Virus record (IMG/VR): IMGVR_UViG_3300033148_005029
Direction: 5' to 3' (one strand)
Length of the DNA: 64,000 bases
From: an uncultured virus (IMG/VR IMGVR_UViG_3300033148_005029)
Taxonomy: Duplodnaviria; Heunggongvirae; Uroviricota; Caudoviricetes
Part shown: positions 575 to 35,358 of the stretch, one piece after another
Layout of the letters: every line of letters starts with the position of its first letter
Numbering within the stretch: the stretch's first letter is position 1
Program-made: the position numbers and the translations under genes
The notes under the pieces: model-generated
What the model was told of the DNA's origin: nothing
The model's database searches: none
Seen by the model: only the letters and a program-made list of their open reading frames with translations

Positions 575-3500
575 ATGGTCAACCTCGCGCAGTACCTCGC
601 CGGCAGTGTATCGCTCGAAGAGCTTGAGGAGTCGCTGCCCGTCAGCGGGGCCGGCGGCTTGATGCTGCCGAAGCCGATGACGACGCGGCACGAGAGGCTG
701 CAGCTCGCATGGCAGGATTTCAGCACGAAGCTGGAAGCCCTGTGGCTCGACGTGATGGAGACGTCCGAAGAGCTGTACATCGATGCCGCGCAGACCATCG
801 ACGAGCTGCGCAACGTCGGCTTTCAGAACCCGCGGCACGGGGTGCCAATCTTCAAGCGCTTGCAGCAGAAGGTCGCTGCGTACGCGATGAAGCCGAGCGA
901 AGAGCAGAATGCCATCCAGGTGATTGCCGCACGTCTCGGAGCGCTGAACGCTGAGCTTCTCTACATCTGCGACGAGCACGACCCGCAGATGCCGAAGCCT
1001 CCGGAGCTGCCCGCCCGCGACATGAAGACGTGGCAGAAGGATAGCGGCGTGGAGCGCTTCCCCGGCGAGCTGGGGATGTCTGATCCCGGCATCGAGGGGA
1101 TGGAACCGGAGCCCGACGACGAGGATTTGCCTCAGGATCAGCAGGTTATCTCGGCGGAGCCCGGCGAGGAGCCCGAGGGGGAGATGCCGCCCGAAGGCGA
1201 AGAGGTGCCGGGCGAGGAGCCCGACGAAGACGAGGTGCCCTACGATGCCGCCGAAGAGGAACCACAGGATGCGGAGGGAGAGCTTGCAGGAGAGGATGGA
1301 GAGGATCCGCTGGCTCCTGGGGACGAAGAGGAAGGCGCCCCGGTCGAGCCTGGTATGGAGGATCCTGACGGTGGTGAGGTGGCTCCTGAGGATGGAGAAG
1401 AGGAAGCCCCCGACGTCGAACCCGGCGAAGCACCCGACGAGGTTCCCGGAACAGAGCCCGAGCTTGCGCCTGAGCCCGGAACAGAGCCCGAGCCCGGAGT
1501 AGAGCCCGACGCCGAAGCTCCGCCCGGGGCCGAGCCCGGCGAAGAGGAGCCCGAGGCACCTCCCGAGAAGGCGGCACCGGATGGTGAGGAGCCCGAGGCG
1601 CCTCCTGAGAAGCTGAAGCCGGAGGATGGAGCGCCCGAGCCACCGTCGGGCATGGAGCCCGAGGGGATGGAGCCCGAGGGGATGCCGAAGGAGAAGCCCG
1701 AGGTACCGCCGAAGGAGAAGCCCGAGGTACCGCCGAAGGAGAAGGGCGACGAGAAGGGCGAGAAGCCCGACATAGCTCAGGTCGCGGACAAGGAACGGGG
1801 AGACGCGGACGACGCGAAGCAGGACTTCGCCGACGCGGCAGCGAAGACCGACGACGAGGAAGGGGAAGCAGAGGAGGTCGAGGGCGACCCGAAGGCTTCC
1901 CCGGAGAAGAAGGCGGACGAGAAGGACGACGTCGAGCGCGCGAAGGGTGAGGAAGTCGACGCTGCGGCGGAGGTCGAGGGTGAGGACGACGAAGCCGACT
2001 CGGCGGAGCGGTCGCTCGGGCAACAGCCGCGTGACTGGGACACCGACCGCCTGAAGAAAGCCTACGATCAGGTCAAGTCGGACCTCGGGGGCAAGGTGCC
2101 CGCGGACGAGATGCCGAAAACACCTGAGGAGCTGATCCAGCTCATCGCGCCCGACGACGGCGACGCCGGCATCATGCAGCAGGGAGCCGACGCGGACACG
2201 GGGAAGGTTGACCCGCAGCTCGCGCAGTACCTGCAGCGCGAGATCAAGAAGGGCACGCTTGGGAAGGAGCCCGACGAGGATGAGCAGCTCGGGGCTCCGC
2301 CGTCGAAGCCGAAGTCGAAGATGCCCCCGCCTGGGAAAGACATCAAGGCGGCGATGAAGATCAAGGCGAAGCGCAAGCCGGGTCGCCGGATGGAGGGGGA
2401 GCCGAAGCTCGGGGAGACGGTGAAGGCAGCTGACCCCGCGAAGGTGGATCAGGACGAGCTGGCGATGGGCACGAAGGAGGAGATGGAGCACACGACCGAC
2501 GTGAAGGTCGCGGAGCGCATCGCCTTGGAGCACCTCGCTGAAGACCCGAGCTACTACAGCAAGCTCAAGAAGGCCGGACTTGCGGAGTTCTACCGCTCTC
2601 CCGACTACTTCGGGCCGAAGGCGGAGCAGTACCTCGACGAAGTAGCGCTCGACGAGCGGGGCCTGCCCGGGGCCATGAAGGCAAAGAAGGTGCTCAAGCG
2701 TCTGCTCAAAGCCGGATGGGAGATCATTCGACAGACCGGATCGCACAAGATCCTGAAGAAGGCCACGAAGACCATCATCTTCGCGTTTCATTCAGGCGTC
2801 GAGATCGGCCGCCGGATGCTCGCGAAGCTGCAGAAGCAGACCGGCGTGAAGTTCATGGAGAACTACGCGGCGGTTGACGCTCTGCGCTACGCCATCGTCG
2901 AAGAGCAGGGTGACGTGGAGGCGTCTTTCCAGCTGGCAGCGGAGACGATCGCGGAAGCCGTGCGGCGCTACACTGACGCGAGTGATGTTCGTGGGGAGTT
3001 GGGCGTGGTTGCTCCCGGGCGTCCACCGTCCATCAACGTGTTCGCGGAGTGGCGGAGCAACGGCCGCCCGAGCGACAGCTTCGGCTTCACGCGTGTCATC
3101 CCGATCGAGGGGGCGGTGTACTTCGCGAACGCAGACGGCGTGGTCAGCGAGTCGTGGGATATCGACGAACACATCACGAACACGGAACTCGCGAACCGCG
3201 TATATGGCGCTATGAGCGAGGTTTACGACGTCTGCCCGACGCGCGTGACAGAGGATGAGAGGGTCGTACCGGCGCTCTACCGCGTCATGGAGCGAGAGCA
3301 GCGCGGAGAGAGCATCTCCGGCTACGCCTACGGTGGACTCCTTAACAGCCTTCGTTCGTCGCTGAGCATCGCAGAGGGTGTGGCTACCGCGCCTCAGCGC
3401 ATCCACGTGACGATGGCAGGCCCGCGCCGCTACTACTTCGAGTGGACGGTCCCGGCCCCCAAGAAGATCCCCGCTGTTGTGGGGACACCGGACGGCATGC

Positions 3501-4243
3501 TTGCTGAGATGCAGGACGTGCTTGGCGCTGGAAAGCTGGCGCTCAACGAGGACGCGACGGTCACGCTCGGCGGCGCGAGGGTGGGCCTCCTGAAGCATCG
3601 CCCGATGACGCCGGAGACCGTGCGGCAGGTCGCGATGTTCAAGACGCCGACCCGGGCTCAGTTCGCTGCGGGGAAGCTCGGAAGCGACTGGACTCCGGTT
3701 CACGTCTACGTTGACGACGGGTCGGAGGGCTGGGTCGTCGGCGACAAGCGGAAGGACGCGCTGTCGAAGATCGGAGCCCGGCGTATGGGTGTTGAGGAGG
3801 GGGTCATCGGGCTCTCTGCAATAGGTGGTGCCGCGTCTACGGTGTGGTGCTCACCGCCGATCAGCATCTCTCCGTCAGAGGGCTCCGTGCTGATCGGCGA
3901 CTCCGTGCTCGACAGGGACTGCTCCGATAGGGCGTTTGCCGATATCATCTCGACGCTCTCCGAGCAGCAGGACGACACGGCACACGGCTACCTGTTCGAG
4001 GACGGCCCCACCGTCCAGGTGGATCGCAAGACGCGCCTACGTGTGCAGGAGACGGGTGTGGGCGATGTGCTGGTGTCGCCGCTCGACGAGGACGAGGACG
4101 AGAGGATCCGGGAGGCGAAGGCGGCGAAGCAGAAGCTCGACCCGTACGACGTCATTCGTGCAATCGCGAACATGGAGTTCATCCCGCGTGGGCCGTTTGC
4201 GGTCCTGAGGGTGAAGCGTCACGGGACGGGACAAGGGAAGTAG
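575..4243 (+). CDS. Large modular head-associated polyprotein: acidic Pro/Glu-rich region, DUF5661-like module and HicA-like RNase module
   Basis: RBS GAAGGAG precedes ATG at 575. E/P/D low-complexity tract at about 1090-2330; ELAMGTKEEMEHT..IALEHLAEDPSYYSKL at about 2444-2580; MKAKKVLKRLLKAGWEIIRQTGSHKILKK..FAFHSGVEIGRRMLAKLQKQTG at about 2675-2850. Confidence 0.8.
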   Translation: MVNLAQYLAGSVSLEELEESLPVSGAGGLMLPKPMTTRHERLQLAWQDFSTKLEALWLDVMETSEELYIDAAQTIDELRNVGFQNPRHGVPIFKRLQQKVAAYAMKPSEEQNAIQVIAARLGALNAELLYICDEHDPQMPKPPELPARDMKTWQKDSGVERFPGELGMSDPGIEGMEPEPDDEDLPQDQQVISAEPGEEPEGEMPPEGEEVPGEEPDEDEVPYDAAEEEPQDAEGELAGEDGEDPLAPGDEEEGAPVEPGMEDPDGGEVAPEDGEEEAPDVEPGEAPDEVPGTEPELAPEPGTEPEPGVEPDAEAPPGAEPGEEEPEAPPEKAAPDGEEPEAPPEKLKPEDGAPEPPSGMEPEGMEPEGMPKEKPEVPPKEKPEVPPKEKGDEKGEKPDIAQVADKERGDADDAKQDFADAAAKTDDEEGEAEEVEGDPKASPEKKADEKDDVERAKGEEVDAAAEVEGEDDEADSAERSLGQQPRDWDTDRLKKAYDQVKSDLGGKVPADEMPKTPEELIQLIAPDDGDAGIMQQGADADTGKVDPQLAQYLQREIKKGTLGKEPDEDEQLGAPPSKPKSKMPPPGKDIKAAMKIKAKRKPGRRMEGEPKLGETVKAADPAKVDQDELAMGTKEEMEHTTDVKVAERIALEHLAEDPSYYSKLKKAGLAEFYRSPDYFGPKAEQYLDEVALDERGLPGAMKAKKVLKRLLKAGWEIIRQTGSHKILKKATKTIIFAFHSGVEIGRRMLAKLQKQTGVKFMENYAAVDALRYAIVEEQGDVEASFQLAAETIAEAVRRYTDASDVRGELGVVAPGRPPSINVFAEWRSNGRPSDSFGFTRVIPIEGAVYFANADGVVSESWDIDEHITNTELANRVYGAMSEVYDVCPTRVTEDERVVPALYRVMEREQRGESISGYAYGGLLNSLRSSLSIAEGVATAPQRIHVTMAGPRRYYFEWTVPAPKKIPAVVGTPDGMLAEMQDVLGAGKLALNEDATVTLGGARVGLLKHRPMTPETVRQVAMFKTPTRAQFAAGKLGSDWTPVHVYVDDGSEGWVVGDKRKDALSKIGARRMGVEEGVIGLSAIGGAASTVWCSPPISISPSEGSVLIGDSVLDRDCSDRAFADIISTLSEQQDDTAHGYLFEDGPTVQVDRKTRLRVQETGVGDVLVSPLDEDEDERIREAKAAKQKLDPYDVIRAIANMEFIPRGPFAVLRVKRHGTGQGK
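1684..1744 (+). repeat. 24-bp in-frame tandem repeat (about 2.5 copies, encoding PKEKPEVP)
   Basis: GCCGAAGGAGAAGCCCGAGGTACC is directly repeated; adjacent MEPEG and GTEPE repeats are also visible. Confidence 0.85.
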
Positions 4244-4651: not shown

Positions 4652-4699
4652 ACTTGATTCTGTGGCCCCATGTGGTAGTATTCTTATGGAGCAAGTGAG
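4652..4699 (+). promoter_or_regulatory. Sigma70-like (early-type) promoter, repeat copy 1
   Basis: TTGATT-16 nt-TAGTAT followed by TCTTATGGAGCAAGTGAG; near-identical copies occur at about 6004 and 6967. Confidence 0.7.
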
Positions 4700-6003: not shown

Positions 6004-6052
6004 ACTTGATTATGTGACCTCAATATCGTAGTATTCTTATGGAGCAAGTGAG
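6004..6052 (+). promoter_or_regulatory. Sigma70-like promoter, repeat copy 2
   Basis: TTGATT-17 nt-TAGTAT-TCTTATGGAGCAAGTGAG. Confidence 0.7.
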
Positions 6053-7654: not shown

Positions 7655-10141
7655 ATGCGACCGGAGCATCTCGACGTCATTCTTGAGCGTGTCGGTGCGG
7701 CGATGCAGGGCAACGCTGTAGCCGAAGCGCAGCAGAGCGTCGATGAGGTAGACAGAGGCTTCGAGTCGTTTGAGGAAGGCACGCGGGCGGAGCAGTTTCG
7801 CTGCAAAGCGCTGTTTTCTGGGGGTGGGTCTGGCTCTGGTAAGGGTTTTGTTCTGGACAACACCGTCCGCGGCCTCGGGCTTCGTATCCTCAACTCCGAT
7901 GACGTCCTTGAGGCGCTTGCGGCAAGCCCGGTCACGCGTGAGCGCTTGCAGAAGAAGCGCGACGCGAAGGGTGCAGAGGGCGACATCACCGGGAAAGGCT
8001 ACGGTCGTCGTGGCGCCGTGATCGACCTCAAGACCGAGCTGATGGGCAAGTTCGTCCAGAAGGAGCTGCGCCCCTACTCGAAGCGTCGGTACAAGAACAA
8101 AGCGCATATGACGATGGACCGCCGCAACGGTCTCGTCTTCGACGTGACCGGTGCCAACCTCGGGACCATCCAGAAGTTCTATAAGGAGCTTACTGAGCGG
8201 GGTTACGACTGCGGGATGATCTTCGTCAGTGTGAAGATTCCGACTGCGCAGACGCGTGACCTCAAGCGTAAGCGTTCGCTCGGCCCGGAAGAGGTCGAGA
8301 AAGTTCACATCAAGGCTAACGCCAACGTCTCGAAGCTGGCTCAGCTGTTCGGTGCGGAGAATTTTCGCATCGTGGTGAACGAGAATGTCAGGGGTACGAA
8401 GCGGCCGACGGCGAAGAAGGACCGCTCCCTTCCCGAGGCAATCCGTAGCGGCGCGACGATGATGCGTGCTGTCAAAGGGCGGAAAGCGCAGCAGCAGGCT
8501 ACGGTCAGCTCCGACCAGTGGACCATCAACCAGCAGCTCATACTGCAGAAGTTCAAGGACGCTCGTAGTTGGGCGACGAAGTGGCTCAAGAGGCCCATCC
8601 GGAACCCCGTCGGCAAGGCGTACCTTGCGAGCCTGAAGGAGGCGGTTGCCGCGGACGCGGGGCTCGTCGAGAAGGCGGAGATGTACGTCGTCTACCGCAA
8701 GGACGGCACCGGCTTCATCTACGAGCAGATGTTCTACGACCAGCTGACTGCTCGGGCGTTCGCACGTCGCATCAAGGGCTCCGTCATCATGGACCCGGCG
8801 AAGGTGCCCGACAGGATCGGCAACCTCTCGCAGCTCGGCGGGAGCGTGGTCGAGGGGGCGGGGGTGCTCAACGAGTGGGGGTATCGGCAGCAGCGTCGCA
8901 CGAAGACCCTCAGCCGTCCGGCCGACGAGATCGCGAAGGCTCTCTCGTTTGAGGCCGCTGTCGTGTTGTTCGGGAGCACGCAGTTCAAGTCTCCCAAGTA
9001 CAAGCTCGCGCAGGAAAGCTTTCGTCTACGCATCTCGAAGGCTGAGTGGGAGAAGGGTCGTAAGGAGCTGACGGGTCACGGCATAGCCAACAAGGCGGGG
9101 AACGTCACCTACAAGCTCGCAACTCCGGTGCGCACCGAGTTGGAGAAGATCGTCGGGGCGCGGACGGACTTCCGGCTTGGGATGGCGCTGACGAAGCACT
9201 ACAACCGCTCGAAGGCGTTCATGGGCGACCCGTGGGATAATGCCGAGAAGCGTCGGTTCGACCTGAGGGACGGTCACTGGTACAGCACCGGCGACTACAA
9301 GCCCCTCCCGGAGGCGGCCGACATCGACGAGCGCGGCTACAAGGCCAACCCGAAGGCATACGCGCAGGCGATGGCGAAGGCCGGAGCGAAGCCTTCCCGT
9401 GTTTGGTTGACCGTCGCAAACCTCGTGCAGTCGGCGGCGAAGAAGATGGGGAACGCTGTTCGCAACATGTCAGACGAGAAGGAGCGTGCCGCGTCGCTCG
9501 GACCCCTGAACACGATTCTGGACCTGACCGATGTTTCTATGGCTACTCAGGCATCGCGCTCGCATCGTGCTGAGACGGTCAAGCAGGTAGCTGCAGCGCG
9601 GGACGCAGCGCAGCGTAGTGGTTCACCGCTCTACTCCGCGCTCAACGACCTCTATCGCAAGATCCGCGCGACGACGTACAACGAGTCGGCCGAAGACCTC
9701 GACGAGTTCTTCTGGCGGAAGCGCGACAAGGGCAAGTTCGCGGCGAAGGGGCAGGGTCAGGAGCCCGCGCCACGCAAGAAGGTACGCTCGAACATCGCCA
9801 GCGACGACTACGCGAAGGCGCTTGCTCAGGCGAAGTCCGACCCGCGCTACAAGGACGAGCTGAAGCACAAGCTCGCGAAGGCGGAGAGCGCGAACGACCG
9901 CACCGGCGTCGAGCTGACGGAGCCGGCGGGACTCGTCAAGCCCGGTCAGGAAGGCGAGTGGAAGCGCGCGAAGGCGGCAGCTTCCCAGCAGTACCCGGGC
10001 ATGGAGGCGAAGGACAAGGACCGCTTCTACGCCGTCACGAACACGATCTTCGGATCGATGACCGGGCGGAGGAAAGAGGAGAGCATGACAGAGCGCACTG
10101 CCAACCTCCTCACCGAGCGGATGACCGGCATCCGGGGGTAG
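7655..10141 (+). CDS. Modular polyprotein with an N-terminal zeta-toxin/AAA_33-like P-loop kinase and several small basic modules
   Basis: KALFSGGGSGSGKG (Walker A), ILNSDD, LVFDVTG and GYDCGMIFVSVKIPTAQTRDLKRKRSL; downstream modules are bounded by acidic xxE linkers. Confidence 0.8.
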   Translation: MRPEHLDVILERVGAAMQGNAVAEAQQSVDEVDRGFESFEEGTRAEQFRCKALFSGGGSGSGKGFVLDNTVRGLGLRILNSDDVLEALAASPVTRERLQKKRDAKGAEGDITGKGYGRRGAVIDLKTELMGKFVQKELRPYSKRRYKNKAHMTMDRRNGLVFDVTGANLGTIQKFYKELTERGYDCGMIFVSVKIPTAQTRDLKRKRSLGPEEVEKVHIKANANVSKLAQLFGAENFRIVVNENVRGTKRPTAKKDRSLPEAIRSGATMMRAVKGRKAQQQATVSSDQWTINQQLILQKFKDARSWATKWLKRPIRNPVGKAYLASLKEAVAADAGLVEKAEMYVVYRKDGTGFIYEQMFYDQLTARAFARRIKGSVIMDPAKVPDRIGNLSQLGGSVVEGAGVLNEWGYRQQRRTKTLSRPADEIAKALSFEAAVVLFGSTQFKSPKYKLAQESFRLRISKAEWEKGRKELTGHGIANKAGNVTYKLATPVRTELEKIVGARTDFRLGMALTKHYNRSKAFMGDPWDNAEKRRFDLRDGHWYSTGDYKPLPEAADIDERGYKANPKAYAQAMAKAGAKPSRVWLTVANLVQSAAKKMGNAVRNMSDEKERAASLGPLNTILDLTDVSMATQASRSHRAETVKQVAAARDAAQRSGSPLYSALNDLYRKIRATTYNESAEDLDEFFWRKRDKGKFAAKGQGQEPAPRKKVRSNIASDDYAKALAQAKSDPRYKDELKHKLAKAESANDRTGVELTEPAGLVKPGQEGEWKRAKAAASQQYPGMEAKDKDRFYAVTNTIFGSMTGRRKEESMTERTANLLTERMTGIRG

Positions 10142-10145: not shown

Positions 10146-13100
10146 ATGCCCGAGCTGACCGAACGACAGGAAGTTCTCGACGACGCCGCGATCAAGCGGA
10201 TGCGGAAGGACTACCTGATGCTGATGCGGAACATCGACCGCGTCACGTCTCCGCGGGCGCACGCGGTCCTGAAGAAAGGCGCGAAGACCTTCGCTCAGCA
10301 CCTCGTAGAACTCATCGTCGGTGACTGGTTCGACACGGCCGACGCGCCTATCAAGACGATCCTCCTGAAGCACAACGTCCCGGAGCGGGAAGCGAAGGCG
10401 GTGCAGCAGCTTGCTCAGAAAGCGCTGTACATGCTGGAACACGAGCTGACGATGATCCCGGATTGGCAGGATTGGGGGGAGGCGTCGCGCAAGGGGGCGA
10501 AAGCGTCAGACTCAGTCCGATGGCGGAAGCGGGTCGATAAGCACGCTCGTCAGGTCTGGAAGGACTTGGACTACGTCTCCAAGTACGTCAAGCGCGTCAG
10601 CGGGTCCACGCCGGTCGTCGGGAAGGCAGAGACGAGCTTCGACGTCGCGGGCATCCCGGTTCGCGTCACGGGGACGCTGAAGTACCCGGATGCGTTCCGT
10701 ACGGGGATGAAGGACGCGGTTCAGCGGATCAAGAAGGTACTCCCGTGGGCGATGCGGTACCGCCTCCCGGTACAGATCATCGACATGGACATGAGGGCAG
10801 ACGGCACGTACAACCGTGCAACGAAGCTCATCCGTATGTCGCACTGGTTGCACGAACCGCGCCGCGTGTCTCAGGTGTACGTTCACGAGATGGGGCATCA
10901 CCTCTGGCAGCAGCTCGGGCAGGACGCGAAGGACTACTACCGCGCGGCCGGGAACGCGAACGCGAAGAAGCTGAGCGTCCGCAAGCTGCTCGATGAGTGG
11001 CCCGAGGGCGCTCTCGGTCTGCTCGGGTACGCGAGGCAGCTTGAGAACTCTGATCCCATCCTCTCCGTGCAGCTGCAGTCGATCGAGATGGGTTACGCGT
11101 CGCGCTCTGCGTCGGACAAGACAAGCCTATTGACGCTTCTCGATCGTGGTGTAGAGCACATTACGGTCGACGGGCACCCGGTGACGTACTACGCCGCAAA
11201 GAACTCGGAAGAGAACTTCTGCGAGGTACTCGGGGCGCTCATCTCGTTCGGTCCGCGCACCGTTCACCCGCTCGTCAAGGCGCTCATGAAGCACGTACTC
11301 GGCTCCCGCTTGAAGCTCTCGGAGGCGACGATGGACACAACCGCGCCCACGAAGGCTCCGTGGCATTCCTGCACGGATTGCGACTACGGTATTCCCAAGT
11401 ACGTGGGCCGCTACCCCCAACATTGCCCGAACTGCGGATGCAAGCTCGGGGGCCAGTCGGGCTACCCGAGCATGAAGCGGCGCCTCCCGACGCGCACCGC
11501 GGACCCGGGGCCGGGCATTCCCCTTGAGGAGCGCGCAGCCTTCGAGGCGTGCATGCACGACGTAGCGCGTGGGGTGAGCTTCCCCGGCGTCACTTACACG
11601 CTCACGGAGGGCGGCGTTGCGGCGTTCCGCTACGCGCCCGACCACCTCGCGATCACGCCGACGGTCATCCGCGTCTCGCTCGACGAGGTCAGCATCCCGG
11701 CAGTCGAGGCGGAGGTCATCAAGCTCGCCGAGACGGTCGACACGCTGATGGTTGATAGCGCCATCGATGAGGGCACGCTGTCAGAGAGAAGGCAGGCCGT
11801 ACTGTCGACGAAGCACTTCGACAAGATGCGCACCGAGTGGAAGCGTATGTTGAAGCCACTCTTCACGAAGGGGCGCGGTACGCTTGAGACCGAGGCGGCG
11901 GACTCCGTCTACGCGGGAAAGTTCGAGGAGTTCGTGCGGGCGTCGTTCGAGTTTCTGGCGCACGAAGTTCCGGTTCTCCCTTCGTTGATATGGTGGTACG
12001 AAAAAGCCGACAACATCACGGGGCCGGCGAAGGCGATAGCGGATAAGTTCGCGGGCGCTTACCTGTGGTCCGAGACGTTCTACAAGCGCAAGTCTGTTCG
12101 TCCCGCGGAGGACTACAAGAAGTTCTACGGAGGCAAGGCGGAGAAGTTCCTGGAGATGTTCGTGAAGCTCCGCAGGGCTGTCGAACACTCGGGGTTTACG
12201 CTCGACAGCTGTAGGCTTATGGGAAAGGCTTCGACCCGCAACATCGATCTCGACATCAAGTACAACAACGTCTTTCGTGAGCACCTTTGGAAACTGTGGC
12301 AGGAACGCGACCCGAGCAGCTTCGATAAGAACGTGAAGAACTTCTTCGCCGGCCCGCACGACGAATCTGCACGTGAGCCGATGGCGGAGTACGCGAAGAC
12401 GCTACCTCGCGAGCTGACCGACTTGAAGTACCAGGACGTTGAGACGAGGCACGTAGACCTTGAGCACGCGGGGAAAGCGGTTCTCGCGAAGCTCGACAAG
12501 GTTCTCAAGTTCTTGAAGGGTGGCGTTGCGACTGCGAGCTATCCCGAGTACATGATGAAGCAGATCGCTACGCAGAACCTCGGTCGTGAGAAAGTGCGTG
12601 GTGAGAAGCTTGCGGTAACGGCGGACGTCGTGCGCGGGAACGACAACGTCGCCGGCTTCCGTGTCGAGAACGACATAGGGCTTCCGCGTCACGCTTGGGA
12701 GAGCTTTGCGAAGGTAGTAGCTCTCGTAGCACGTGGGTTGAAGCGTAAGGGTCTCGGCTTCCTCATCAAGCGCGTGGTCGTTCACGTCAAACCAAAAACC
12801 ATGCGCACGTTCACCGTCAAGGATACTGGAGAGAAGAGCCTGTATGGTGGCTCCTACAACCTGTCTCCCGGGTACGACATGTTGGATCTCAAGTATGGAA
12901 TGAGAACAGATCCGAGTTCAAAGCAGAAGCTCAGTAAGAGCACGCCGACGGCGAAGGGCAAGGGCGTCGTCGTCATGAACTACGACACCGCCAGCATACC
13001 GTCTGAGCAGGACGTGGCGCGCATCTTCACACACGAGATCGGGCATCACTACTACTTCGCTTTCCTGCCGCCGAAGGCTCGCGCCGCCTACCGGCACTTC

Positions 13101-22925: not shown

Positions 22926-24188
22926 ATGCCCGACATCATCGCCTTCCGGGCCGGCCGCACGCTCCTGCGGGGGACACTCCGCGAGACGCGGGGAAGCGTG
23001 CATCGCGTCGAGATGCCGGAGGGCGATGTCGTCGAGGTCGATGACCGTTTCCGCCTTCGGGCTCCGGCAATGCTGCACGAGGTGACGCAGCGTAGCCTCT
23101 TCACCGCTCTGACGGACAGCATCATTCCCGCACTTCTCGCGGGTCAGAAGCTGCGCACGGAGTCGGTTTGGCTCCGTGGTCTCGACCGTACGAACAACGG
23201 ACCGCGTCTCCGTCTTCGTGAGGGGAACCGCGACCTCTCCGCATCGCTCTTCTCCGTGCTGTCGGAGCACGCGCAGCTTGGGGAGCACATGGCGCTCGAC
23301 GCGCATCGTCCGATGCTCACGCGTCTCGGTTTCATCGAGGGTGAAGGCTCGCCTCTCATCGACGGCGACGGCGTGCTCACACGGCCCGTCAACGTCTATC
23401 TCAAGCGTGACCTGTTCCGCGACGTCGGCCGCATCCACGAAGGTACCTCGGTCAGCGTGATGGGCTACTTTCGCGGGTGCGCGGTTGTTGAAGCGGACGG
23501 CGAGGAGTGCTGGCTTCCCGTCGAGCACAACTACTTCATCGAGTCGCTCGTGAAGGATCCCGACTACTATTTCAACCTCGACGCGGATGGGAACCTTGTG
23601 CCCGACCCGCTCGACTTCTTACCCAGCAAATCAGGGCTGGCGATGAAACCTGGCGACACATCGGCGGACGACAACTGGAACGCGCAGCCTGAGCTGACAC
23701 ACGTCTCGGGACACTTCGCGCCGTTGCCACAGCTCGGCGACCCGATGCATGATTTCCTGCACGGGAAGAAGGGCAGCATCGGGGAGAGCTACGCACCGCT
23801 CTTCTACCACCACGACTACCAGCACGCGTACCCCGAGCTTCATGGGCTTGGCGGCAGGGCAGTTCATCATCGCGATTTCAGCTCGCAGGAGCACGATGAC
23901 GCGGACGTGGAACAGCTCGTGAAGGGCGCGCCGTTGGGAGTGCGACCGGGGCGGCCGGCGGTGGAGTGCATGAAGCACGATTTCAGCCCGCAGGAGCAGG
24001 GCGCGATGGACCTCGCCTCGCTTTCGTCGGGCGCACCACTCGGGAGCGTCTTCGACCGCGCACCATCGATGGACAACTTCGCGGAGGTTTTCCGCGAAAT
24101 GTACGAGCGCATCGTCGGCATGCCGCCTACGGAGGCGGTCGTTCGCGCGTGCTACGCGGATGCATCACGGAGGCACGACTGTGGGTGA
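22926..24188 (+). CDS. Hypothetical protein with a duplicated DFSxQE..GAPLG motif
   Basis: HRDFSSQEHDDADVEQLVKGAPLG and KHDFSPQEQGAMDLASLSSGAPLG. Confidence 0.65.
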   Translation: MPDIIAFRAGRTLLRGTLRETRGSVHRVEMPEGDVVEVDDRFRLRAPAMLHEVTQRSLFTALTDSIIPALLAGQKLRTESVWLRGLDRTNNGPRLRLREGNRDLSASLFSVLSEHAQLGEHMALDAHRPMLTRLGFIEGEGSPLIDGDGVLTRPVNVYLKRDLFRDVGRIHEGTSVSVMGYFRGCAVVEADGEECWLPVEHNYFIESLVKDPDYYFNLDADGNLVPDPLDFLPSKSGLAMKPGDTSADDNWNAQPELTHVSGHFAPLPQLGDPMHDFLHGKKGSIGESYAPLFYHHDYQHAYPELHGLGGRAVHHRDFSSQEHDDADVEQLVKGAPLGVRPGRPAVECMKHDFSPQEQGAMDLASLSSGAPLGSVFDRAPSMDNFAEVFREMYERIVGMPPTEAVVRACYADASRRHDCG

Positions 24189-24546
24189 GTTCATCGACGT
24201 CTTCGATCTGATCGAAGCGAAGAAGGGTGGCCTTCATAAGCTCACGGCGAAGGAGCGGAAGGCCGTCAATGCTTCGTTCAGGAAGGGCGGACTCGACGGC
24301 AATACCGTCTTTCGTTCGCCCAACGAGGGCGTCAGTGTAGCCGCGGAGGTTATGGAAAAGCACGGGTTCGAGTTCATGGCGTCCGGTGGTTTCAGGCCGA
24401 AGAACAACGGTCGGACGAATTACGACTTCGATCGCTCGAACAAGGCGGATGCGTTCTCGCCAGCGTACATTGAGAACTCGTCCATCTGGTTCAGCTGGTA
24501 TCAGCATCGCGAAGGCGCTTTCGAGTGCCTTGCATATCTGTCGTAG
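24181..24546 (+). CDS. Small protein, putative internal head protein
   Basis: RBS GGAGG and GTG start; leader MGEFIDVFDLIE followed by a compact domain. Confidence 0.65.
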   Translation: MGEFIDVFDLIEAKKGGLHKLTAKERKAVNASFRKGGLDGNTVFRSPNEGVSVAAEVMEKHGFEFMASGGFRPKNNGRTNYDFDRSNKADAFSPAYIENSSIWFSWYQHREGAFECLAYLS

Positions 24547-28222: not shown

Positions 28223-28674
28223 TCGGCCGACGCGCGGCACGACCGGCGACTGCGTTCATCGACCCGAAGGCGAAGAGCCAAGGTCGCCGACCGCATCAGA
28301 GGCATGAAGGGGTGTATCTTTTCAAGCGTGCTGCGCACGACACGACCATCGACATGTACGAGCCTCCGACGGCGGACGGCTTTGTCGAGAGCTACGTGCT
28401 GGAGCACTTCGACGCGGAGCTGCTTCTGGCGATCGTGCTCAAGCTGACAGAGCAAGAGATCATCGACTTGATGGACCGCTTGTACAACTTCCGCGCGGTC
28501 ACGTTCAACACGCGGACACGGGCTATCGTCGTGCGACGTGACACGTGGGCGCGGCCCCACAACGAGGACTTGCTCGCTCTGCCTCCGGTTGACGTGTCGG
28601 AGCGTCTCGATCGGTCGCTTACCGGACTTGTGAGTCACATGCAGGCGCTCGCGCCACAGAAGGAGACAGCGTGA
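28219..28674 (+). CDS. Hypothetical protein
   Basis: ATGA and GTGA overlaps with the two neighbouring genes. Confidence 0.6.
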   Translation: MIGRRAARPATAFIDPKAKSQGRRPHQRHEGVYLFKRAAHDTTIDMYEPPTADGFVESYVLEHFDAELLLAIVLKLTEQEIIDLMDRLYNFRAVTFNTRTRAIVVRRDTWARPHNEDLLALPPVDVSERLDRSLTGLVSHMQALAPQKETA

Positions 28675-31298
28675 TGCAGGTGCTCGACGGTCGCAACCTC
28701 TACGAGAACGGGACGAGCCTCGGGCTGCTTCAGCTCGAAGAGGGTCAGCGCTCCAACAAGATGATCATCATCGAGCGCTTCTCGGGCGAGTGGTGCGATC
28801 TCAAGCAGGTCGAGCTGACGGAGATGGACCGGACGAACGCGTCGCAGCTCTTCGAGGCCGGCGGAAACAAGGCCCCTCGCATCCTCATGGCGATGGAGGG
28901 GCGTTTTCAGGCGTCGGACATGAAGAACGCGAACGGGCGGATCTACCCCGGGACCATCTGGGAGAAGATCATTCCGAACGCCGGCACGTCGCCGGTACTC
29001 GGCCGCATCGCTCGCGGGGAGATGCTCGGCGAGGTCGATCACCCCGGCGACGGGCAGACGCTGCTCAAGCGCGTCGGGTGCATGACGACGAACATCCTGC
29101 GCGAAGGCAGCGACGTCCGCGGGCGGATGATCGTGTTCGACACCGCGGTCGGCCGGGATGTGAAGGCCATCGTTGAGGGCGGCGGACGTGTTGGCGTCAG
29201 CTCGCGGGGACAGGGGAGCGTCGTCCGGCTCGAAGGTACGGACGTCGTGCAGGACGATTACCAGCTCGAAACGTGGGATGTCGTCCACAATCCGAGCACG
29301 CCGGGAGCCTACCCGGACATCACGATACAGGAGAGCGCGGCGCCGTCGCAGCCGCAACAGGAGGAGCGGATGGGCATGCTGGCGGACCTCCGGGAGCGGT
29401 TCGAGAGGCTGAAGAAGCATATCGAGGGGCCGGATGCTGACCTCACGGAGAGCGTCTTCACGATCCTCAACGACGAAGCGAAGGGGATGGCGACGGAGCT
29501 GACGGAGGGCAAGTTCGGGGGCTCGCCCGCGGAGGTCGCCGCCATCGCTGCCGACGTGCAGTATTTCCTCAACCGCATCGGGCAGCTGCGCGCGAACCCG
29601 ATCAAGGGCATCCCGCTCGGCGAGGAGGACGACCCGCTGCCGACGGCCGCCGCGACGGGCGGAACGGTGCAGCTCGCGGAGAGAGACTACAAGGGCGACC
29701 CGAAGGCGTACGCGAAGGCGATGGGAAAGGCGCAGAAGAGGGCGGGCATCAAGACGCTGAGCACCGACGTGAGCACCGGGCCATTCTCGGACGCTCGGTC
29801 GAACGCTATTTGGGACGCGCGGATGGAACTGGAGGATGTGCTTGGTCTATGGCACCCGATCACGAAGAAACTCAGGGTGATCTACGACGCCTTGAAGATG
29901 CAAGGCGGTTCGTCCTCGAAGAAGGAAAAGGCGCTGAAGGATTTGGCGCGACTCCGTGATAGTGCACAGCGTGCTGATGGCGACGAGGGTAAGGTTTACT
30001 CTGCTCTCCGTGATGCCTACCGCCGGGCTCGCGCGTCGATGTACAACGAGGCTCGCATGGGGGCTCACGCGGGGCAGAACGAGCCGGGGCGGGACTGGGA
30101 TGACGCAGGTGACGTCGAGGACGTCCGCGCCCGCTTCAAGGGCAAGCCGAAGCGTACGCCCGGTCGCCACAAGGCGGACAAGGCGCTCGTGAAGGGCGCA
30201 GCGAAGCAGCTTGCTCGGTACAACGAGAACGACGACGACGATGACGATACGGAAGAGGAGTGCAACGAGACTTTCCAGCGTGCAACGACCGCGGGTGAGA
30301 CGGTCGAGGTTCTGGAGAACGTCGCCGGCCTGCGCGAGAAGGCGCTGACCGTGCCGATGACCCGCTTCGTTCATGAGGCGCGCAAGGCGTACCGGGACGC
30401 GGCGCAGGTCGATGGCATGATCCATCGGCACGAGCTGGACGGCATCTCTTCCTTCGTGCGGGACACCTACGAAGCGGTCGAGAAGGACGAGATCACGGAG
30501 ACGATGGAGACGCCCGCCGGACGGCGGCGCTTGGAGATCATCGTTCCCAACGCGGGCAAGCTCGACGAGAACACGAAGCAGCTGGTGGCCCCCATCGGCG
30601 GACTCACGCAGACGGCGCCGGGCCGCTACCACACCTCGGTGCCCATCGACAAGGTCAGCGACGTGCTGGAGAGCCTTGCGCGTGGGGGCATGTCTCTCGT
30701 GTACACCGAGTCGACCGAGGCTTTCGACGACGCGGCGGAGCGCTTTCAGCCGCTGCTCGACAGGCAGATGAGCCTCACGCAGGCAGCGCTCACCGAAGCA
30801 GCGACGGGTAAGGCGTGGGTCACGGAGATGTCCGCGATCATCGCCAACGTGAAGCAGGCGATGCAGATGCTCACGGAGAAGGCTCGCGAGCGCGGTGCGG
30901 CGCTGCAGGAGACGGAGAAGAAGGTCAGCGCAGCTACGGCTCTCATCGAAGCGTTCGCTCGTGAGTTCGGCGTTGAGCGGGTTCGCGGTGCGGTGCAGGC
31001 GGTCGCTCAGCTTCATCCGAGCGCCAACGCGCTGCCGGAGAAGCTCTCGGAGGCCCGTAGCGTCGAGGACTGTGTCAGGCTGACACGTGGGGAGGTGTAC
31101 CTGGAGAACCTGCCCATCGTCGAGCGGAACGAGACGCGCATCACGGAAGCGGTGCAGACGTCTCAGCGCGCGAGACAGAAGCGCATCGAGGAGAGCGCGA
31201 AGAAGCCCGGAGCGGGCAGCTTCAAGCGCAGCATCGTCGAGACGACCGAGCAGGTTGTCGGAGCGATGGACAAGAAGTACGGCCGGAAGGATCGGTAA
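28671..31298 (+). CDS. Prohead maturation protease (T4 gp21-like) fused to a long scaffold/core-like region
   Basis: EGRFQASDMKNANGRIYP, GEVDHP (His), VGVSSRGQGS (Ser) and WDVVHNPSTPGAY (Asp); C-terminal coiled coil; lies directly upstream of the MCP. Confidence 0.92.
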   Translation: MMQVLDGRNLYENGTSLGLLQLEEGQRSNKMIIIERFSGEWCDLKQVELTEMDRTNASQLFEAGGNKAPRILMAMEGRFQASDMKNANGRIYPGTIWEKIIPNAGTSPVLGRIARGEMLGEVDHPGDGQTLLKRVGCMTTNILREGSDVRGRMIVFDTAVGRDVKAIVEGGGRVGVSSRGQGSVVRLEGTDVVQDDYQLETWDVVHNPSTPGAYPDITIQESAAPSQPQQEERMGMLADLRERFERLKKHIEGPDADLTESVFTILNDEAKGMATELTEGKFGGSPAEVAAIAADVQYFLNRIGQLRANPIKGIPLGEEDDPLPTAAATGGTVQLAERDYKGDPKAYAKAMGKAQKRAGIKTLSTDVSTGPFSDARSNAIWDARMELEDVLGLWHPITKKLRVIYDALKMQGGSSSKKEKALKDLARLRDSAQRADGDEGKVYSALRDAYRRARASMYNEARMGAHAGQNEPGRDWDDAGDVEDVRARFKGKPKRTPGRHKADKALVKGAAKQLARYNENDDDDDDTEEECNETFQRATTAGETVEVLENVAGLREKALTVPMTRFVHEARKAYRDAAQVDGMIHRHELDGISSFVRDTYEAVEKDEITETMETPAGRRRLEIIVPNAGKLDENTKQLVAPIGGLTQTAPGRYHTSVPIDKVSDVLESLARGGMSLVYTESTEAFDDAAERFQPLLDRQMSLTQAALTEAATGKAWVTEMSAIIANVKQAMQMLTEKARERGAALQETEKKVSAATALIEAFAREFGVERVRGAVQAVAQLHPSANALPEKLSEARSVEDCVRLTRGEVYLENLPIVERNETRITEAVQTSQRARQKRIEESAKKPGAGSFKRSIVETTEQVVGAMDKKYGRKDR

Positions 31299-31343: not shown

Positions 31344-32735
31344 ATGGGTGACAACCCGTACGCCACGATGGAGGACGTCGTTGCGAAGGGGGAGATGCTT
31401 GCCGAGAGCAAGTGGGCTCCGCTCGTCAAGGGGCTCGAAGGGCTCGACAAGGCGCACACGGCGGTGCTGCTGGAGAACACCGCGAGGTGGGTCAACAGCA
31501 TCGACGAGACCACGCGCGCTGTCAACGTGGGCAACTTCGACCGCTTCGCCTTCCCGCTCGTCCGCGCCGTCGTCCCGAGTCTCGTCTCGCAGGATCTCGT
31601 CAGCGTCCAGCCGATGGACGGACCTGTCGGGCTCATCTTCTACTTCGACCTGATCTACGGGTCCAACAAGGGCCGCATCCGCGCCGGCACCCCCGTCTTC
31701 AGCTCGCTGACGGGACACCCCGGTGACGATTTCTACAGCTCGCCGCGGATCGAGGAGGAGGCCATTGCCACGGGCAACGGCGCCACCGCGAACTACACCG
31801 GCACGCTCGACTACACCCCGTGTGTCCCCGGAACGCTGCAGATCACTGACGGCGCGCTCAGTGCGCAGGACGACGGTCAGGGCAACCTGATCGGCGACAT
31901 CGTCGCTGGCGGCGTGAACACCGTCAACTACAGCACGGGCGCCTTCGATGTCACCTTCTCGGCGAACATCGCGGCCAACAACCCGATCGTCGCGAACTAC
32001 GAGTACGACAACGAAGCGAACAGCCAGGTTCCCGAGATCGACTTCCAGCTGACGTCGGCCCCGGTCGTCGCCAAGATTTTCAAGCTCCGCACCCGCTACA
32101 GCCTGGAGGCTGCTCAGAACCTCCGCGCGCTGCACGGGCTCTCCGCGGAGACCGAGCTGGTCGTCGCGCTCGCGCAGGATCTCCGCTTCGAGATCGACCG
32201 TACCATCATCAAGGAAGTCAACCAGTTCGCGCAGGCCACCTCGGTCAGCTGGCCCCTCACCCCGTCGGCGGGCGTGTCGTGGACGGAGCACAAGCTCAGC
32301 TTCGTCGACAAGCTCATCGAGGGCTCGAACAACGTGTTCGAGCTGACGCGGCGCGGCAACCCGAACTGGTGCGTGGTCGGGCTCAAGGTCTCCAACGTCA
32401 TCGAGAGCCTCCCCGGCTTCAAGCCCTCGGGCGCGATGTCGAACCCGGTCGGCGTCATCTACGCGGGTGACCTCAACGGCCGGTGGAGGATCTACAAGGA
32501 TCCGTACAACATCGACGGCACCGCGACGCAGCGCAACTTCCTCATCGGCTACAAGGGCTCGACGTTCCTGGAGGCCGGCTTCGTGTACGCGCCCTACATC
32601 CCGTTCTACACGACGCCGACCGTCATCCTCGACGACTTCCTCGCGAGGAAGGGCATGGCGACGCAGTGGGCGCGCCGGAAGGTCAACGGGCGCTTCTACT
32701 GCCGCGGCACCGTCTCCGGCAACTTCGCCCCGTAG
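31344..32735 (+). CDS. Major capsid protein (T4 gp23-like)
   Basis: KWAPL..TAVLLEN, PLVRAVVP.LV..DLVSVQPMDGPVGLIFY, LRTRYSLEAAQNLRALHG, EIDRTII and LIGYKG..AGFVYAPYIP. Confidence 0.96.
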   Translation: MGDNPYATMEDVVAKGEMLAESKWAPLVKGLEGLDKAHTAVLLENTARWVNSIDETTRAVNVGNFDRFAFPLVRAVVPSLVSQDLVSVQPMDGPVGLIFYFDLIYGSNKGRIRAGTPVFSSLTGHPGDDFYSSPRIEEEAIATGNGATANYTGTLDYTPCVPGTLQITDGALSAQDDGQGNLIGDIVAGGVNTVNYSTGAFDVTFSANIAANNPIVANYEYDNEANSQVPEIDFQLTSAPVVAKIFKLRTRYSLEAAQNLRALHGLSAETELVVALAQDLRFEIDRTIIKEVNQFAQATSVSWPLTPSAGVSWTEHKLSFVDKLIEGSNNVFELTRRGNPNWCVVGLKVSNVIESLPGFKPSGAMSNPVGVIYAGDLNGRWRIYKDPYNIDGTATQRNFLIGYKGSTFLEAGFVYAPYIPFYTTPTVILDDFLARKGMATQWARRKVNGRFYCRGTVSGNFAP

Positions 32736-32837: not shown

Positions 32838-33992
32838 ATGGCGCGTATACGCCGCGCAGACATTGAAGCGCTGCTTAGCAAACCGTCGCCGAAGGCAGCG
32901 GTTTGGGGCTTTCAAGCGAACGCACTTGGGCAAGGGCTCGACTCAGCGCTCGCCGGAAACCATAGCAAACGTCAGAGATGGGTGCGGGGTCTTCTGAAGA
33001 CTTCATCTGCGGACACCTTCACGACCCGGCAGCAGTCCGTATGGTACCGCGGCATACCGCGTAAAACCCACAGGGTAGTGATTATCTCCGAGCTGAACGG
33101 CGCAGACGTCTACCACTACTTTCCGAAGGGCGGAGAGCACGGACCGATTGCTAAGCTCTGGAAGTCCTACGGCGAGGGCACAACGCCTCCGCTTAAGAAG
33201 GGGAAGAAGCACGCGAGGACGAACTCACGTCCGACGATGGAAGCGACAATGAGCGAGCGGCGTAGCGCGAAGGAGCTTCTCGGCGCGACGCACGCTATGA
33301 CGGGCATTTCGTGGTACCACAAGGAAACCGACAAGAAGCTTGCGCATCTATCCTACGCGACGCTCAAGCTCACGGTCATGCCACGCGTGTCCAAGGCGTT
33401 CGAGAAACTCATCCGCGCCGACGCGACGCAGTACAAGAAGGGTCAGGTTCACACGAACCCGAGCGGGCAGTCGACCACGTGGGGCCACGAGCTGAAGGAG
33501 GCGACACCCGATCGGCAGGTTCAACTCATAGAGACGCTCGTCTCTCACCTCGACGAAGCACGGATGAGTAAGTCCGAGTTCGCGAAGGAGTGCCGGCGTC
33601 GTCGGGACCACGGGCTCGTGCTGTCGGGCAACACGTACCCCATCAAGGAAAAGATCAAGGCGCAGGGTGGTATCTGGGATTCTCGTCTGCGGGCGTGGTT
33701 GGTTCCGGACGTCACCGTGATGAACAAGCTCGACAGCTTGATGTCTGGCTCGTCTCGCAGCTCGTCCCGTACTTCTTCGTGGGATGCCAGCGACGCCGCT
33801 GCTACCAGTGTCGCCGCTGGCAGCGGTGCATCTCGCAGCACGATAAAAACTCGTGCTGGAGGTTGCGCAGAATGCGGGGCAAGCCTTCAAGGTCGCGGTC
33901 GCAGCACGTTACGTCACGACTCGTCCGGCCTCCCGGGCTACGTGTGCAGGCGCTGCTCGTCAACTTCAAGCTACGAACTGAGCTTTGCATAG
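32838..33992 (+). CDS. Modular basic protein (about three modules, C-terminal Zn finger)
   Basis: Modules are separated by TMEATMSE and LKEATPDRQVQLIETLVSHLDE; the last module has LSGNTYPIKEKIKAQGGIWD and CAEC..CRRC. Confidence 0.7.
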   Translation: MARIRRADIEALLSKPSPKAAVWGFQANALGQGLDSALAGNHSKRQRWVRGLLKTSSADTFTTRQQSVWYRGIPRKTHRVVIISELNGADVYHYFPKGGEHGPIAKLWKSYGEGTTPPLKKGKKHARTNSRPTMEATMSERRSAKELLGATHAMTGISWYHKETDKKLAHLSYATLKLTVMPRVSKAFEKLIRADATQYKKGQVHTNPSGQSTTWGHELKEATPDRQVQLIETLVSHLDEARMSKSEFAKECRRRRDHGLVLSGNTYPIKEKIKAQGGIWDSRLRAWLVPDVTVMNKLDSLMSGSSRSSSRTSSWDASDAAATSVAAGSGASRSTIKTRAGGCAECGASLQGRGRSTLRHDSSGLPGYVCRRCSSTSSYELSFA

Positions 33993-33998: not shown

Positions 33999-34292
33999 GT
34001 GATGAGCGTCGCCAAAGACTACGAAATGTACCTTCAGGGTAAGGATGGCGACCGTCCGATGAAGGAGTCAACATCCGTGGAGAGCGCGCCCGACCGGCAG
34101 GTTCAGCTCGCAGAAGCACTCGTCGAGCATTTCACGCATTTCGACGAGGCGCGCAAGCCGAAGCCGAAGAAGAAGAAGCCGTTCGCGAAGTGCATGGAGT
34201 GCGGTCGCGGCTTTGCGTCTGTGCGGGCGGCGGAGCGGGCGATGTCTGTAGGTTGTCCGGGCTGCGGTGGGTCTGACATCGACATGGCGTAG
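33999..34292 (+). CDS. Small Zn-ribbon protein
   Basis: RBS AGGAG; CMECG..CPGCGGSD follows the PDRQVQL..DEAR linker. Confidence 0.7.
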   Translation: MMSVAKDYEMYLQGKDGDRPMKESTSVESAPDRQVQLAEALVEHFTHFDEARKPKPKKKKPFAKCMECGRGFASVRAAERAMSVGCPGCGGSDIDMA

Positions 34293-34301: not shown

Positions 34302-34646
34302 ATGGATCGGCAGAGTCGTCTTGCATCTTACCTCCGCGAGTCGCGGCAGCCGCAGCAGCCGGTCGAGGAGGCGAAAGATCCGAACGACGTCGCCGTTCGG
34401 ATGCTGCAGAACCCGAAGAGGCCGCTCGATCTGATCCGAAAGCGGCTGTCCGCGCTGGAGAAGGCGTTCAAGGCTCGGGCGCAGGAGTTGGAGGGGCTCA
34501 AGAAGCTCGGGTCGGCCAACATCTCAGCTCCTGACCTTTTGGGCCGTATCGAAGCGGAGGAGCTGTACGACCTGGGCGTTGCGGTGAAGGACATGGAGTA
34601 CGGCGTGTCGCAAGTGCTCAGCGCTGCGCGGCGCAGTAGAGGATAG
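34302..34646 (+). CDS. Small helical protein, putative internal head protein
   Basis: RBS AGGAG; leader MDRQSRLASYLRE. Confidence 0.65.
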   Translation: MDRQSRLASYLRESRQPQQPVEEAKDPNDVAVRMLQNPKRPLDLIRKRLSALEKAFKARAQELEGLKKLGSANISAPDLLGRIEAEELYDLGVAVKDMEYGVSQVLSAARRSRG

Positions 34647-34662
34647 GGGGAGTCCTCTCCCC

Positions 34663-34710: not shown

Positions 34711-34726
34711 CACGGAGGAGCGAGCG

Positions 34727-35095
34727 ATGTCAGGGATCACGCCGGATAAGCCTGTGGCGCGGCCGACGAGCGGGCTTGCGCAGCGCGTCACTGAGCTGGA
34801 GGAGCAGGTCGAGAAGCTGCAGTCTGACGTTGCTCGGCTCGCGAATGCAACCGCGCAGCAGCAGGCGAACATCATCGACCTCGACACGCGCGTTGAGAAG
34901 CTGGAGGGTGCCCCTCCGACACCGATCCCGCCCATCGAGCTGCCGGGCATGGTGAAGTGCGACCACAAACCCTTCAGCTACCCGGACGGGCAGCCTTATG
35001 TCGTACCCGCTCCGTTGGCAGGAACGCGAGCAGCACCGGTGTCGCACCTCTACATGTGCTCCATGTGTGGGGTACTCTACGGGGGGAATGCGTGA
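34727..35095 (+). CDS. Coiled-coil and Cys-containing hypothetical protein
   Basis: RBS GGAGGAG; heptad pattern LAQRVTELEEQVEKLQ; C-terminal CSMC. Confidence 0.65.
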   Translation: MSGITPDKPVARPTSGLAQRVTELEEQVEKLQSDVARLANATAQQQANIIDLDTRVEKLEGAPPTPIPPIELPGMVKCDHKPFSYPDGQPYVVPAPLAGTRAAPVSHLYMCSMCGVLYGGNA

Positions 35096-35358
35096 TGCCG
35101 TTCGTCCCGGTCGAGAGGCTCGTGGAGAAGAAGGCGAGCTATCGCGCGGTCGTTCGCGGACGCGGGGATGGGTTGCAGTCCGCGGACGTGTTCAAGGGTG
35201 ACGTCATTCACGACGGTACGCACGGCTCGCAGGGGGCCGTGCAGGCATGGCTGCTGCGCCACTACCCGAGCGTTGACGTCGAGGATCACTCTCGCTTCGC
35301 GTCGCCCGAGGTTGACGACGATGACGACGGGGAGATGGTCGAGGAGGGATTGGCGTAG
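35095..35358 (+). CDS. Small hypothetical protein
   Basis: TGATG coupling; leader MPFVPVERLVE. Confidence 0.55.
   Translation: MPFVPVERLVEKKASYRAVVRGRGDGLQSADVFKGDVIHDGTHGSQGAVQAWLLRHYPSVDVEDHSRFASPEVDDDDDGEMVEEGLA

Follow-up and report, generated by a model that had tools for sequence, protein, structure and literature searches.

Polyvalent proteins of an uncultured T4-type myophage with linkers that resemble head-protease cleavage sites

The analysed window is the first 64 kb of the 95.6-kb virus record IMGVR_UViG_3300033148_005029 (uncultured, Caudoviricetes), and we deal here with five of its open reading frames (ORFs 575, 7655, 10146, 28674 and 32838, named by their start), in which unrelated domains follow one another and are joined by short linkers ending in hydrophobic-x-Glu (phi-x-E). 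All five are present on the plus strand, and the protease-scaffold, capsid, neck and tail genes share this strand; the start of the protease ORF, placed at 28671 in the first-pass annotation, is more likely the ATG at 28674. The head genes encode a gp23-type capsid protein, an S77 prohead protease in one chain with a scaffold-like region, and neck proteins, and the genes 3' of this block look like sheath, tape-measure and baseplate genes. The closest cultured capsids are those of Bacillus SP-15, Listeria LIS04 and HSE3, at 37-40% identity.

The domains named in the first-pass annotation are backed by profile matches, namely DUF5661 (E 3e-9), HicA (1e-11), zeta/AAA_33 kinase (6e-6), Nudix (3e-15), ParB-like (phrog_2859, 5e-25) and the S77 protease, and all 16 distinct linker motifs quoted there were found in their places. 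Three HExxH motifs are read straight from the sequence of ORF 10146, and zincin-like clusters of the ESM Atlas were matched by the first of its two zincin repeats. Hence, domains of disparate activity occur in one chain, zincin with ParB-like and Nudix in one case and DUF5661 with HicA in the other. The HicA_toxin profile scores 44.7 bits against a cut-off of 27 with the GSH motif in place, and the module is predicted to be RNase-like; a PDB search with it returned no natural HicA structure among the matches. The label 'toxin' derives from the HicA and zeta family matches only. Most delimited modules are basic, with an isoelectric point (pI) of 9.2-11.6, and the short linkers are acidic, at about 4.1-4.5, as had been described, but DUF5661 (4.9) and Nudix (5.1) are acidic themselves. 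Pfam and PHROG scans of the uncharacterised pieces gave no firm family except zincin and DUF5710, and the ESM Atlas held nothing for residues 763-990 of ORF 575. Searches of viral contigs with single chain proteins found solely the same phage or one distant match, and for ORF 10146 (among shorter proteins) and residues 330-828 of ORF 7655 their own pieces alone were among the matches listed. A single-sequence AlphaFold model of ORF 7655 (mean predicted local distance difference test score 43.9) was too poor for linker mapping and was not used.

The linkers recall the sites of the T4 head protease gp21, which cuts after L/I-x-E (PMC9026906; papers cited by PMC number are drawn on for single passages). 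It removes targeting leaders, and the internal proteins (IPs) and Alt, the latter trimmed at both ends (PMC5694885), are ejected (PMC5694885, PMC7411985, PMC9026906). Leu stands at position -2 of Glu 59 times in the five ORFs against 32.2 expected (p 1.5e-5), and 40 times against 26.3 (p 0.008) in the chain ORFs without the protease. It is not enriched in 26 tail and neck proteins (48 vs 40.3) or in 14 cytoplasmic proteins (37 vs 32.7). Counts of [LI]xE over whole proteins turned out to be weak evidence (18 vs 14.7 expected in ORF 10146, 18 vs 15.9 in ORF 575), and the position relative to module borders is the only informative measure of the motif.

Module borders, 22 in all, were set from Pfam and PHROG projections, BLAST ends and internal duplication, each with a 21-residue window. 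[LI]xE is found at 15 of the 22 against a null of 5.0 (p 5e-5), the borders having been chosen with the motifs already seen and two shared-module starts having been placed at the motif; the raw BLAST starts of the shared module (aa 550 and aa 321) also adjoin a site. The control motifs Ex[LI] (4/22), [LI]xD (3/22) and phi-x-K[SAG] (3/22) stay at the null level. The interiors of 11 non-protease modules contain 3 [LI]xE where 11.4 are expected (p 0.004). The description of the joints as ending in hydrophobic-x-E is borne out for the most part, with the N-terminus of ORF 575 and both DUF5710 borders of ORF 32838 among the exceptions. The motif is also seen near protein N-termini: of 24 head-region genes, a set of our own choosing, 12 have it among their first 16 residues, as do 9 of 63 others (p 0.001). 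Coordinates of the features are collected in Table 1.

Table 1. Chain ORFs, their modules and associated genes, in coordinates of the window
Feature	Position	Strand	Basis or remark
1222-aa protein	575..4243	+	acidic low-complexity N-terminal ~600 aa, DUF5661 (aa 615-671), HicA-like (aa 695-762), uncharacterised acidic C-terminal part
DUF5661 module, KLGE/...GLAE	2417..2587	+	homologs end phi-x-E (S77 phages) or phi-x-K-S/A (Lys-type phages)
HicA-like module, ALDE/...KFME	2657..2860	+	GSH motif, pI 11.6
828-aa polyprotein	7655..10141	+	acidic leader, zeta/AAA_33-like kinase, about five small modules (four basic)
P-loop kinase module, SFEE/G...SLKE	7778..8641	+	aa 42-329 of ORF 7655
Basic helical module	9332..9706	+	common to protease-scaffold insert (E 5e-11); both copies start directly after [IL]xE
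2164-aa polyprotein	10146..16640	+	zincin, Zn ribbon, two ~500-aa zincin repeats, ParB-like, uncharacterised basic module, Nudix, acidic tail
Zincin repeat 1, TLSE/...KLAE	11787..13304	+	aa 548-1053; [LI]xE-free interior
Zincin repeat 2, PLAE/...KLGE	13404..14870	+	aa 1087-1575; 47% identity to repeat 1; [LI]xE-free interior
ParB-like module, SLWE/...KLSE	14895..15278	+	3424 relatives
Nudix module, WLLE/...KVTE	15714..16130	+	profile match
Small basic protein, 10-aa leader ending L-A-E	21708..22112	+	candidate stand-alone cargo (putative role)
Small protein, 12-aa leader ending L-I-E	24181..24546	+	homolog within G005 polyprotein
gp21-type (S77) prohead protease (H123, S176, D202) + scaffold-like region, variable cargo insert	28674..31298	+	PF03420, E 8e-17
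Two basic modules within protease-scaffold	29682..30233	+	aa 337-460, 461-520; relatives: other E-bounded modules or none
gp23-type major capsid protein	31344..32735	+	three [LI]xE in first 55 residues
384-aa protein, three basic pieces	32838..33992	+	positional counterpart in L318: other cargo, same linker
Linker cassette DRQVQL[IA]E...[LF]DE, copy 1	33510..33557	+	sequence comparison
97-aa protein	33999..34292	+	linker cassette copy 2 (from 34092), then Zn-ribbon module
114-aa protein	34302..34646	+	N-terminal leader is a linker-cassette variant ending L-R-E
87-aa protein, 11-aa leader ending L-V-E (L318: L-A-E)	35095..35358	+	sequence comparison

The third position of the T4 gp21 triad in the structure 5JBL we take to be D168. 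The gp21-type protease is encoded with an intact triad, as had been stated; H123, S176 and D202 of ORF 28674 align with the T4 positions in 5JBL, whose deposited chain has Ala at H85 and S140. H85A/S140A is a dead mutant of T4 gp21 (PMC12991175). ORF 28674 contains 28 [LI]xE against 9.3 expected, with 4 against 0.9 in the catalytic core, and its many sites are the known pattern of the T4 scaffold. In 49 homologs of the protease-scaffold, Leu occurs at -2 of Glu 766 times against 296 expected, and other offsets are at 0.6-1.3-fold. The ORF had been counted among the effector chains; it is the protease-scaffold itself, but it does carry a swappable module insert. At this variable site, between the protease and scaffold parts, differing small E-bounded modules were seen by eye in 8 of the 23 rows displayed (46 were examined, the rest being without anchor). 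ORF 7655 carries a homolog of the window's insert at aa 550-678 (E 5e-11). Hence, the module pool of the polyproteins overlaps a protein that, by the T4 precedent, enters the prohead and is cleaved there.

The joint signal varies together with the protease family. For the ParB-like module, the best 150 of 3424 relatives were examined, and phi-x-E stands exactly at the C-terminal end of the module in 66 of the 138 homologs reaching it, the background inside the module being about 2% per position. Other homologs end in phi-x-K-S/A. InPase, RelA/SpoT, GNAT, ddrB-ParB and LPD domains accompany these homologs. Across 48 of 50 selected records with homolog loci, long contigs being favoured, the S77 protease is present in 15 of 22 E-ended records, in 2 of 14 K-ended or mixed ones (p 0.002) and in 3 of 12 with neither ending, counts that come from related records and are uncorrected for kinship. 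In the records at least 90% complete, the corresponding figures are 7/7, 1/4 and 2/7. XkdF (PF14550) was matched in none of the 48 records and S78 in one, under the cut-off. The Lys-type phages are Herelle-like with an SPO1/phi812-like capsid, and the protease phrog_1028 was found by PHROG in all three tested. Their scaffold and protease proteins hold 6-10 phi-x-K[SAG] against 0.8-1.5 expected, and the S77 protease-scaffolds hold 22-28 [LI]xE against 8-9 in four of six records of high guanine-cytosine content. We assume that the phi812 capsid protein is trimmed by 24 residues after V-V-K. Its chain in 9ROW corresponds to the 463-aa sequence minus 24 residues. No Herelleviridae capsid cut site is given in the passages drawn on from PMC3601020 and PMC3170307.

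The same switch is seen in an unbiased set of borders, for which the ends of BLAST alignments were collected from 26 polyproteins of S77 phages and 19 of Lys-type phages. Hits above 90% identity, below 40 aa or above 400 aa were excluded, clusters of at least three ends were required, and ends had to lie more than 25 aa from a terminus. At the S77-phage borders, which come from related proteins and are non-independent, [LI]xE is found at 74 of 171 (170 after removal of one stray ORF) against a null of 27.9, and the K-motif at 19 against 15.2. At the Lys-type borders, non-independent likewise, it is the K-motif that exceeds its null (20 of 62 vs 6.8), with [LI]xE at 10 against 8.3. Taken by record, [LI]xE is significant in five of seven S77 groups (not in G002 and G024) and the K-motif in two of six Lys groups. 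After shuffling within the border windows, [LI] at -2 of Glu still stands at 101 against 51 (z 8).

Two further observations were made on joints of other types. In the Lys-type polyproteins of L303 (G034 87153-97308) a short GPRGGKWAD-type element is repeated directly after phi-x-K-G/A, and it is a candidate loading or DNA-binding tag. The ParB homologs P0055, P0058, P0061 and P0071 have [RK]-x-A borders, and [RK][LIVTF]A is found 9 times against 2.0 and 9 against 2.6 expected in G039 42107-44731 and 54008-57109. An Ala-ended class was sought in G038 (120 of 437 kb) and G039, with a hint in G039 only and no S77 match in either; a third class of linkers ending in Ala is possible.

From the comparison of related phages, the linkers also read as joints at which modules are acquired or exchanged, become separate genes or are fused together. 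In a close relative, L318, whose protease domain is 85% identical, the capsid gene and one endonuclease-like ORF are followed by a 418-aa chain with different cargo and two copies of DRQVQLAEAL; a variant of this linker also begins the gene that follows. The Zn-ribbon module of ORF 33999 is in L318 fused to the end of the 418-aa chain, directly after I-D-E. A search of viral contigs with the DNA pattern of the DRQVQL linker gave matches in this phage alone. In G005, a homolog of gene 24181 lies inside a 2678-aa polyprotein as a module bounded by E sites. The Pelagibacter phage HTVC008M encodes the kinase module on its own, behind an 8-aa leader that ends in L-K-E, and after the leader the module starts at the same position as the predicted cut site in the window. 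The Melnitz phages have the kinase module as well. By eye, an endonuclease-like gene lies right behind the capsid gene in L318 (4615-5559) and L002 (4035-4631) and is not in the window.

A link to virions comes from the Dickeya phage LIMEstone1, whose stand-alone ParB homolog is annotated as 'confirmed structural protein'. Its 17.3 kDa match the 17.31-kDa, 5-peptide entry in the virion table of PMC3296691, with ORF numbers off by one. Together with the module shared with the protease-scaffold, this makes packaging of the chains plausible. The LIMEstone1 homolog has no E-ended leader and therefore supports packaging of the ParB module rather than cleavage.

Taken together, we suggest, as the moderately likely reading, that the chains are polyvalent proteins of a T4-type myophage which would be packaged in the prohead and cut by its head protease. 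Since the joint signal changes with the protease in related phages, it is probable that the chains enter the capsid and are cleaved inside it. Cleavage by the head protease we consider likely; for the whole path through to ejected active effectors, judged partly by analogy, we would put the chances only slightly above even. Observed directly are the domains, where the motif lies, the swapping of modules, and that the motif varies across phages along with the protease family; the scheme below builds on these.

Step 1: The chains would be made late and join the prohead core via their acidic leaders and linkers, as the internal proteins of T4 do via their capsid-targeting sequence.

Step 2: The S77 protease is strongly suggested to cut after hydrophobic-x-Glu in the exposed linkers. 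The scaffold and linker peptides would then exit, and the folded, largely motif-free modules would remain in the head alongside the DNA.

Step 3: On the model of T4 Alt and internal proteins, the freed pieces of 50-500 aa would be ejected with the genome and act early. Among them may be the RNase-like HicA module, the kinase, the Nudix, ParB-like and zincin domains and many uncharacterised basic proteins.

Several points weigh against this scheme. The phage is uncultured, its record is 44% complete (CheckV), and no match to a T4-type portal was found in the record. ORF 575 shows no overall enrichment of [LI]xE, its residues 78-613 are acidic and of low complexity with zero [LIVFM]xE, and a further three acidic pieces lie in the span 763-1172. 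ORF 32838 gains little from the borders, neither side of DUF5710 having a site. Most modules have no assigned function. The motif also occurs inside the ParB domain, 18 residues before its end, in 41 of 150 homologs, and the missing leader in LIMEstone1 and the kinship of the records and borders counted above belong here as well. The protease-scaffolds of G002 (13 vs 9.7) and G005 (11 vs 10.8) are without excess of [LI]xE, that of G018 is likewise not flagged for one, and the borders of G002 are unenriched (5/24 vs 3.6 expected). Borders of S77 phages are enriched in the mirror motif E-x-phi as well (91 vs 53; shuffled, 86 vs 51), and of 63 E-x-[LI] cases with complete context no more than 38 overlap phi-x-E, so that a part of the signal is that of a general acidic-hydrophobic linker. 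About 80% of the head proteins of SPN3US escape cleavage, and processing differs between homologs (PMC10052503, PMC5694885).

Of the other explanations, the one that survives best, unlikely as we consider it, holds that the chains are intact when packaged and acting, or are cut by their own zincins, and that the E motifs are leftover leaders of fused small genes. Autoprocessing by zincins has been proposed and the N4 vRNAP is packaged unprocessed (PMC5512222, section 8); ORF 10146 has its three HExxH motifs, and stand-alone homologs begin with short E-ended leaders, so that fusion alone would make sites. However, ORFs 575 and 7655 are without a zincin match in the profile scans, the motif is found also at C-terminal ends of modules and gives way to a Lys motif where the protease is of another family, and the depletion of sites in module interiors argues against both intact and zincin-cut chains.

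Slightly less likely still, the chains could be disposable core or filler like T4 gp22, gp67 and gp68, which would be cut with the pieces cleared or filling the head instead of serving as effectors. One module is located inside the scaffold itself, ORF 575 is mostly acidic low-complexity sequence, and T4 core proteins are cut into many fragments, most of which leave (PMC9026906). Yet the sites in the chains avoid modules rather than pepper them, the P-loop, HExxH, Nudix and GSH motifs are there in the sequence, and most pieces are basic like the T4 internal proteins.

It is also improbable, a shade more so, that the chains meet the protease in the cytoplasm during late infection and are cleaved there, freeing enzymes in the producing cell with no role as virion cargo. 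Expressed T4 gp21 suffices to activate a host CD-NTase via an LPE-containing loop (PMC12991175), hence gp21-type activity can reach substrates other than phage head proteins. The module shared with the scaffold, the excess of E-ended leaders in head-region genes over others and the virion-confirmed ParB homolog argue against this explanation. Compositional chance in acidic linkers is very improbable: the motif is short, border windows are rich in Glu (0.121 vs 0.077) and E-x-phi is enriched too, but [LI] at -2 survives the within-window shuffles, [LI]xD is flat, and the Glu/Lys switch tracks the protease.

Processing by the head protease would place the chains between two known systems. They resemble the polyvalent proteins (Iyer et al. 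2017, PMC5512222) in having unrelated domains per chain, zincin, ParB-like and zeta-like kinase among them, in genes that lie among virion genes and in the predicted delivery with DNA; the HExxH zincins and the zeta-like kinase of the window belong to the published domain pool. In PMC5512222, unlike here, processing is assigned to built-in zincins, and assemblin-like peptidases are mentioned solely as C-terminal domains that likely retain their function in building the virion. With the T4 internal proteins IPI-III and Alt (PMC9026906, PMC5694885) the chains share the gp21-type protease, L/I-x-E sites and short E-ended leaders, and their predicted mature products are likewise basic. However, a T4 internal-protein precursor gives one mature protein and a precursor of the window would give up to about eight; the protease here is fused to the scaffold, and the scaffold itself bears cargo modules. 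With several unrelated domains per chain, the proteins would work like T4 internal proteins and yet are not classed as such. The ejection proteins of phiKZ and SPN3US (PMC7411985, PMC10052503) are similar as internal proteins that the head protease cleaves behind the Glu of short motifs, in many cases more than once, but these cuts remove propeptides (13 of 14 sites in SPN3US are N-terminal), and release of multiple functional domains from a single chain is unreported in those passages. P1 DarA, DdrB and DarB (PMC9024508, PMC5512222) are large head-packaged multi-domain proteins as well, some of them processed, DarB with an N-terminal targeting signal; P1 differs in not being T4-like, and the passages drawn on do not give the protease and sites for DarA.

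The domain pool is that of published polyvalent proteins and the processing would be that of T4 internal proteins, a combination for which no published description was found. The effector-polyprotein reading of the first-pass annotation is kept as far as the linkers are probable head-protease sites, by their position at borders, the avoidance of interiors and the Glu/Lys switch with protease and scaffold motif; a wholly new system it is not. The linker motif and its switch with the protease family are described neither in the main-text passages of PMC5512222 (supplements not covered) nor in any other publication found, subscription journals being mostly uncovered.

Some further features of the phage were noted. 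About 600 Pro/Glu/Gly-rich acidic residues with short tandem repeats (632-2416) form a stretch of ORF 575 that the polyprotein model does not explain. A 370-aa protein (26708-27820) has 9 [LI]xE against 2.4 expected and a segment resembling a baseplate protein; it is possibly a head-associated substrate. A gene for a protein with Sigma70 region 4 (6274-6951, E 2e-6) lies just 5' of the polyprotein genes. Upstream of small genes there are three copies (4670-4699, 6023-6052, 6986-7015) of an AT-rich intergenic motif of 30 nt, which is likely to act as promoter or operator. Five tandem paralogous genes of 193-265 aa (47223-50913; 29-79% identity across aligned parts) are probably tail-fibre accessories. 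A 1517-aa tail-region protein (41526-46079) has repeat-like beta segments after its N-terminal part, the latter presumably like a zinc carboxypeptidase by its motif. No tRNA was found. Outside the window, a protein looking like a PAS histidine kinase (G000:C1:77153-78244) and a 1732-aa DNA polymerase-like protein, seemingly with two inteins (G000:C1:88483-93681), were seen by eye.

More broadly, we suggest tentatively, giving it somewhat less than an even chance, that tailed phages broadly use cargo polyproteins, strings of separate effectors linked through a 'cut here' code, which the head protease would read and which is rewritten (Glu, Lys, perhaps Ala) as modules pass from one lineage to another with a different protease. 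The window is one well-supported example and not a unique case. The maturation of polyvalent proteins has been open since their first description, in which zincins were guessed, and a head-protease code would give exact cut sites. It also suggests how proteins of 2000-4000 residues could traverse a tail. If the suggestion is true, T4 internal proteins and polyvalent proteins represent a single cargo system, the former in split and the latter in fused form, and the set of injected proteins of uncultured phages becomes predictable. With the linker as both loading tag and shuffling joint, the code could list virion-delivered anti-host proteins from sequence.

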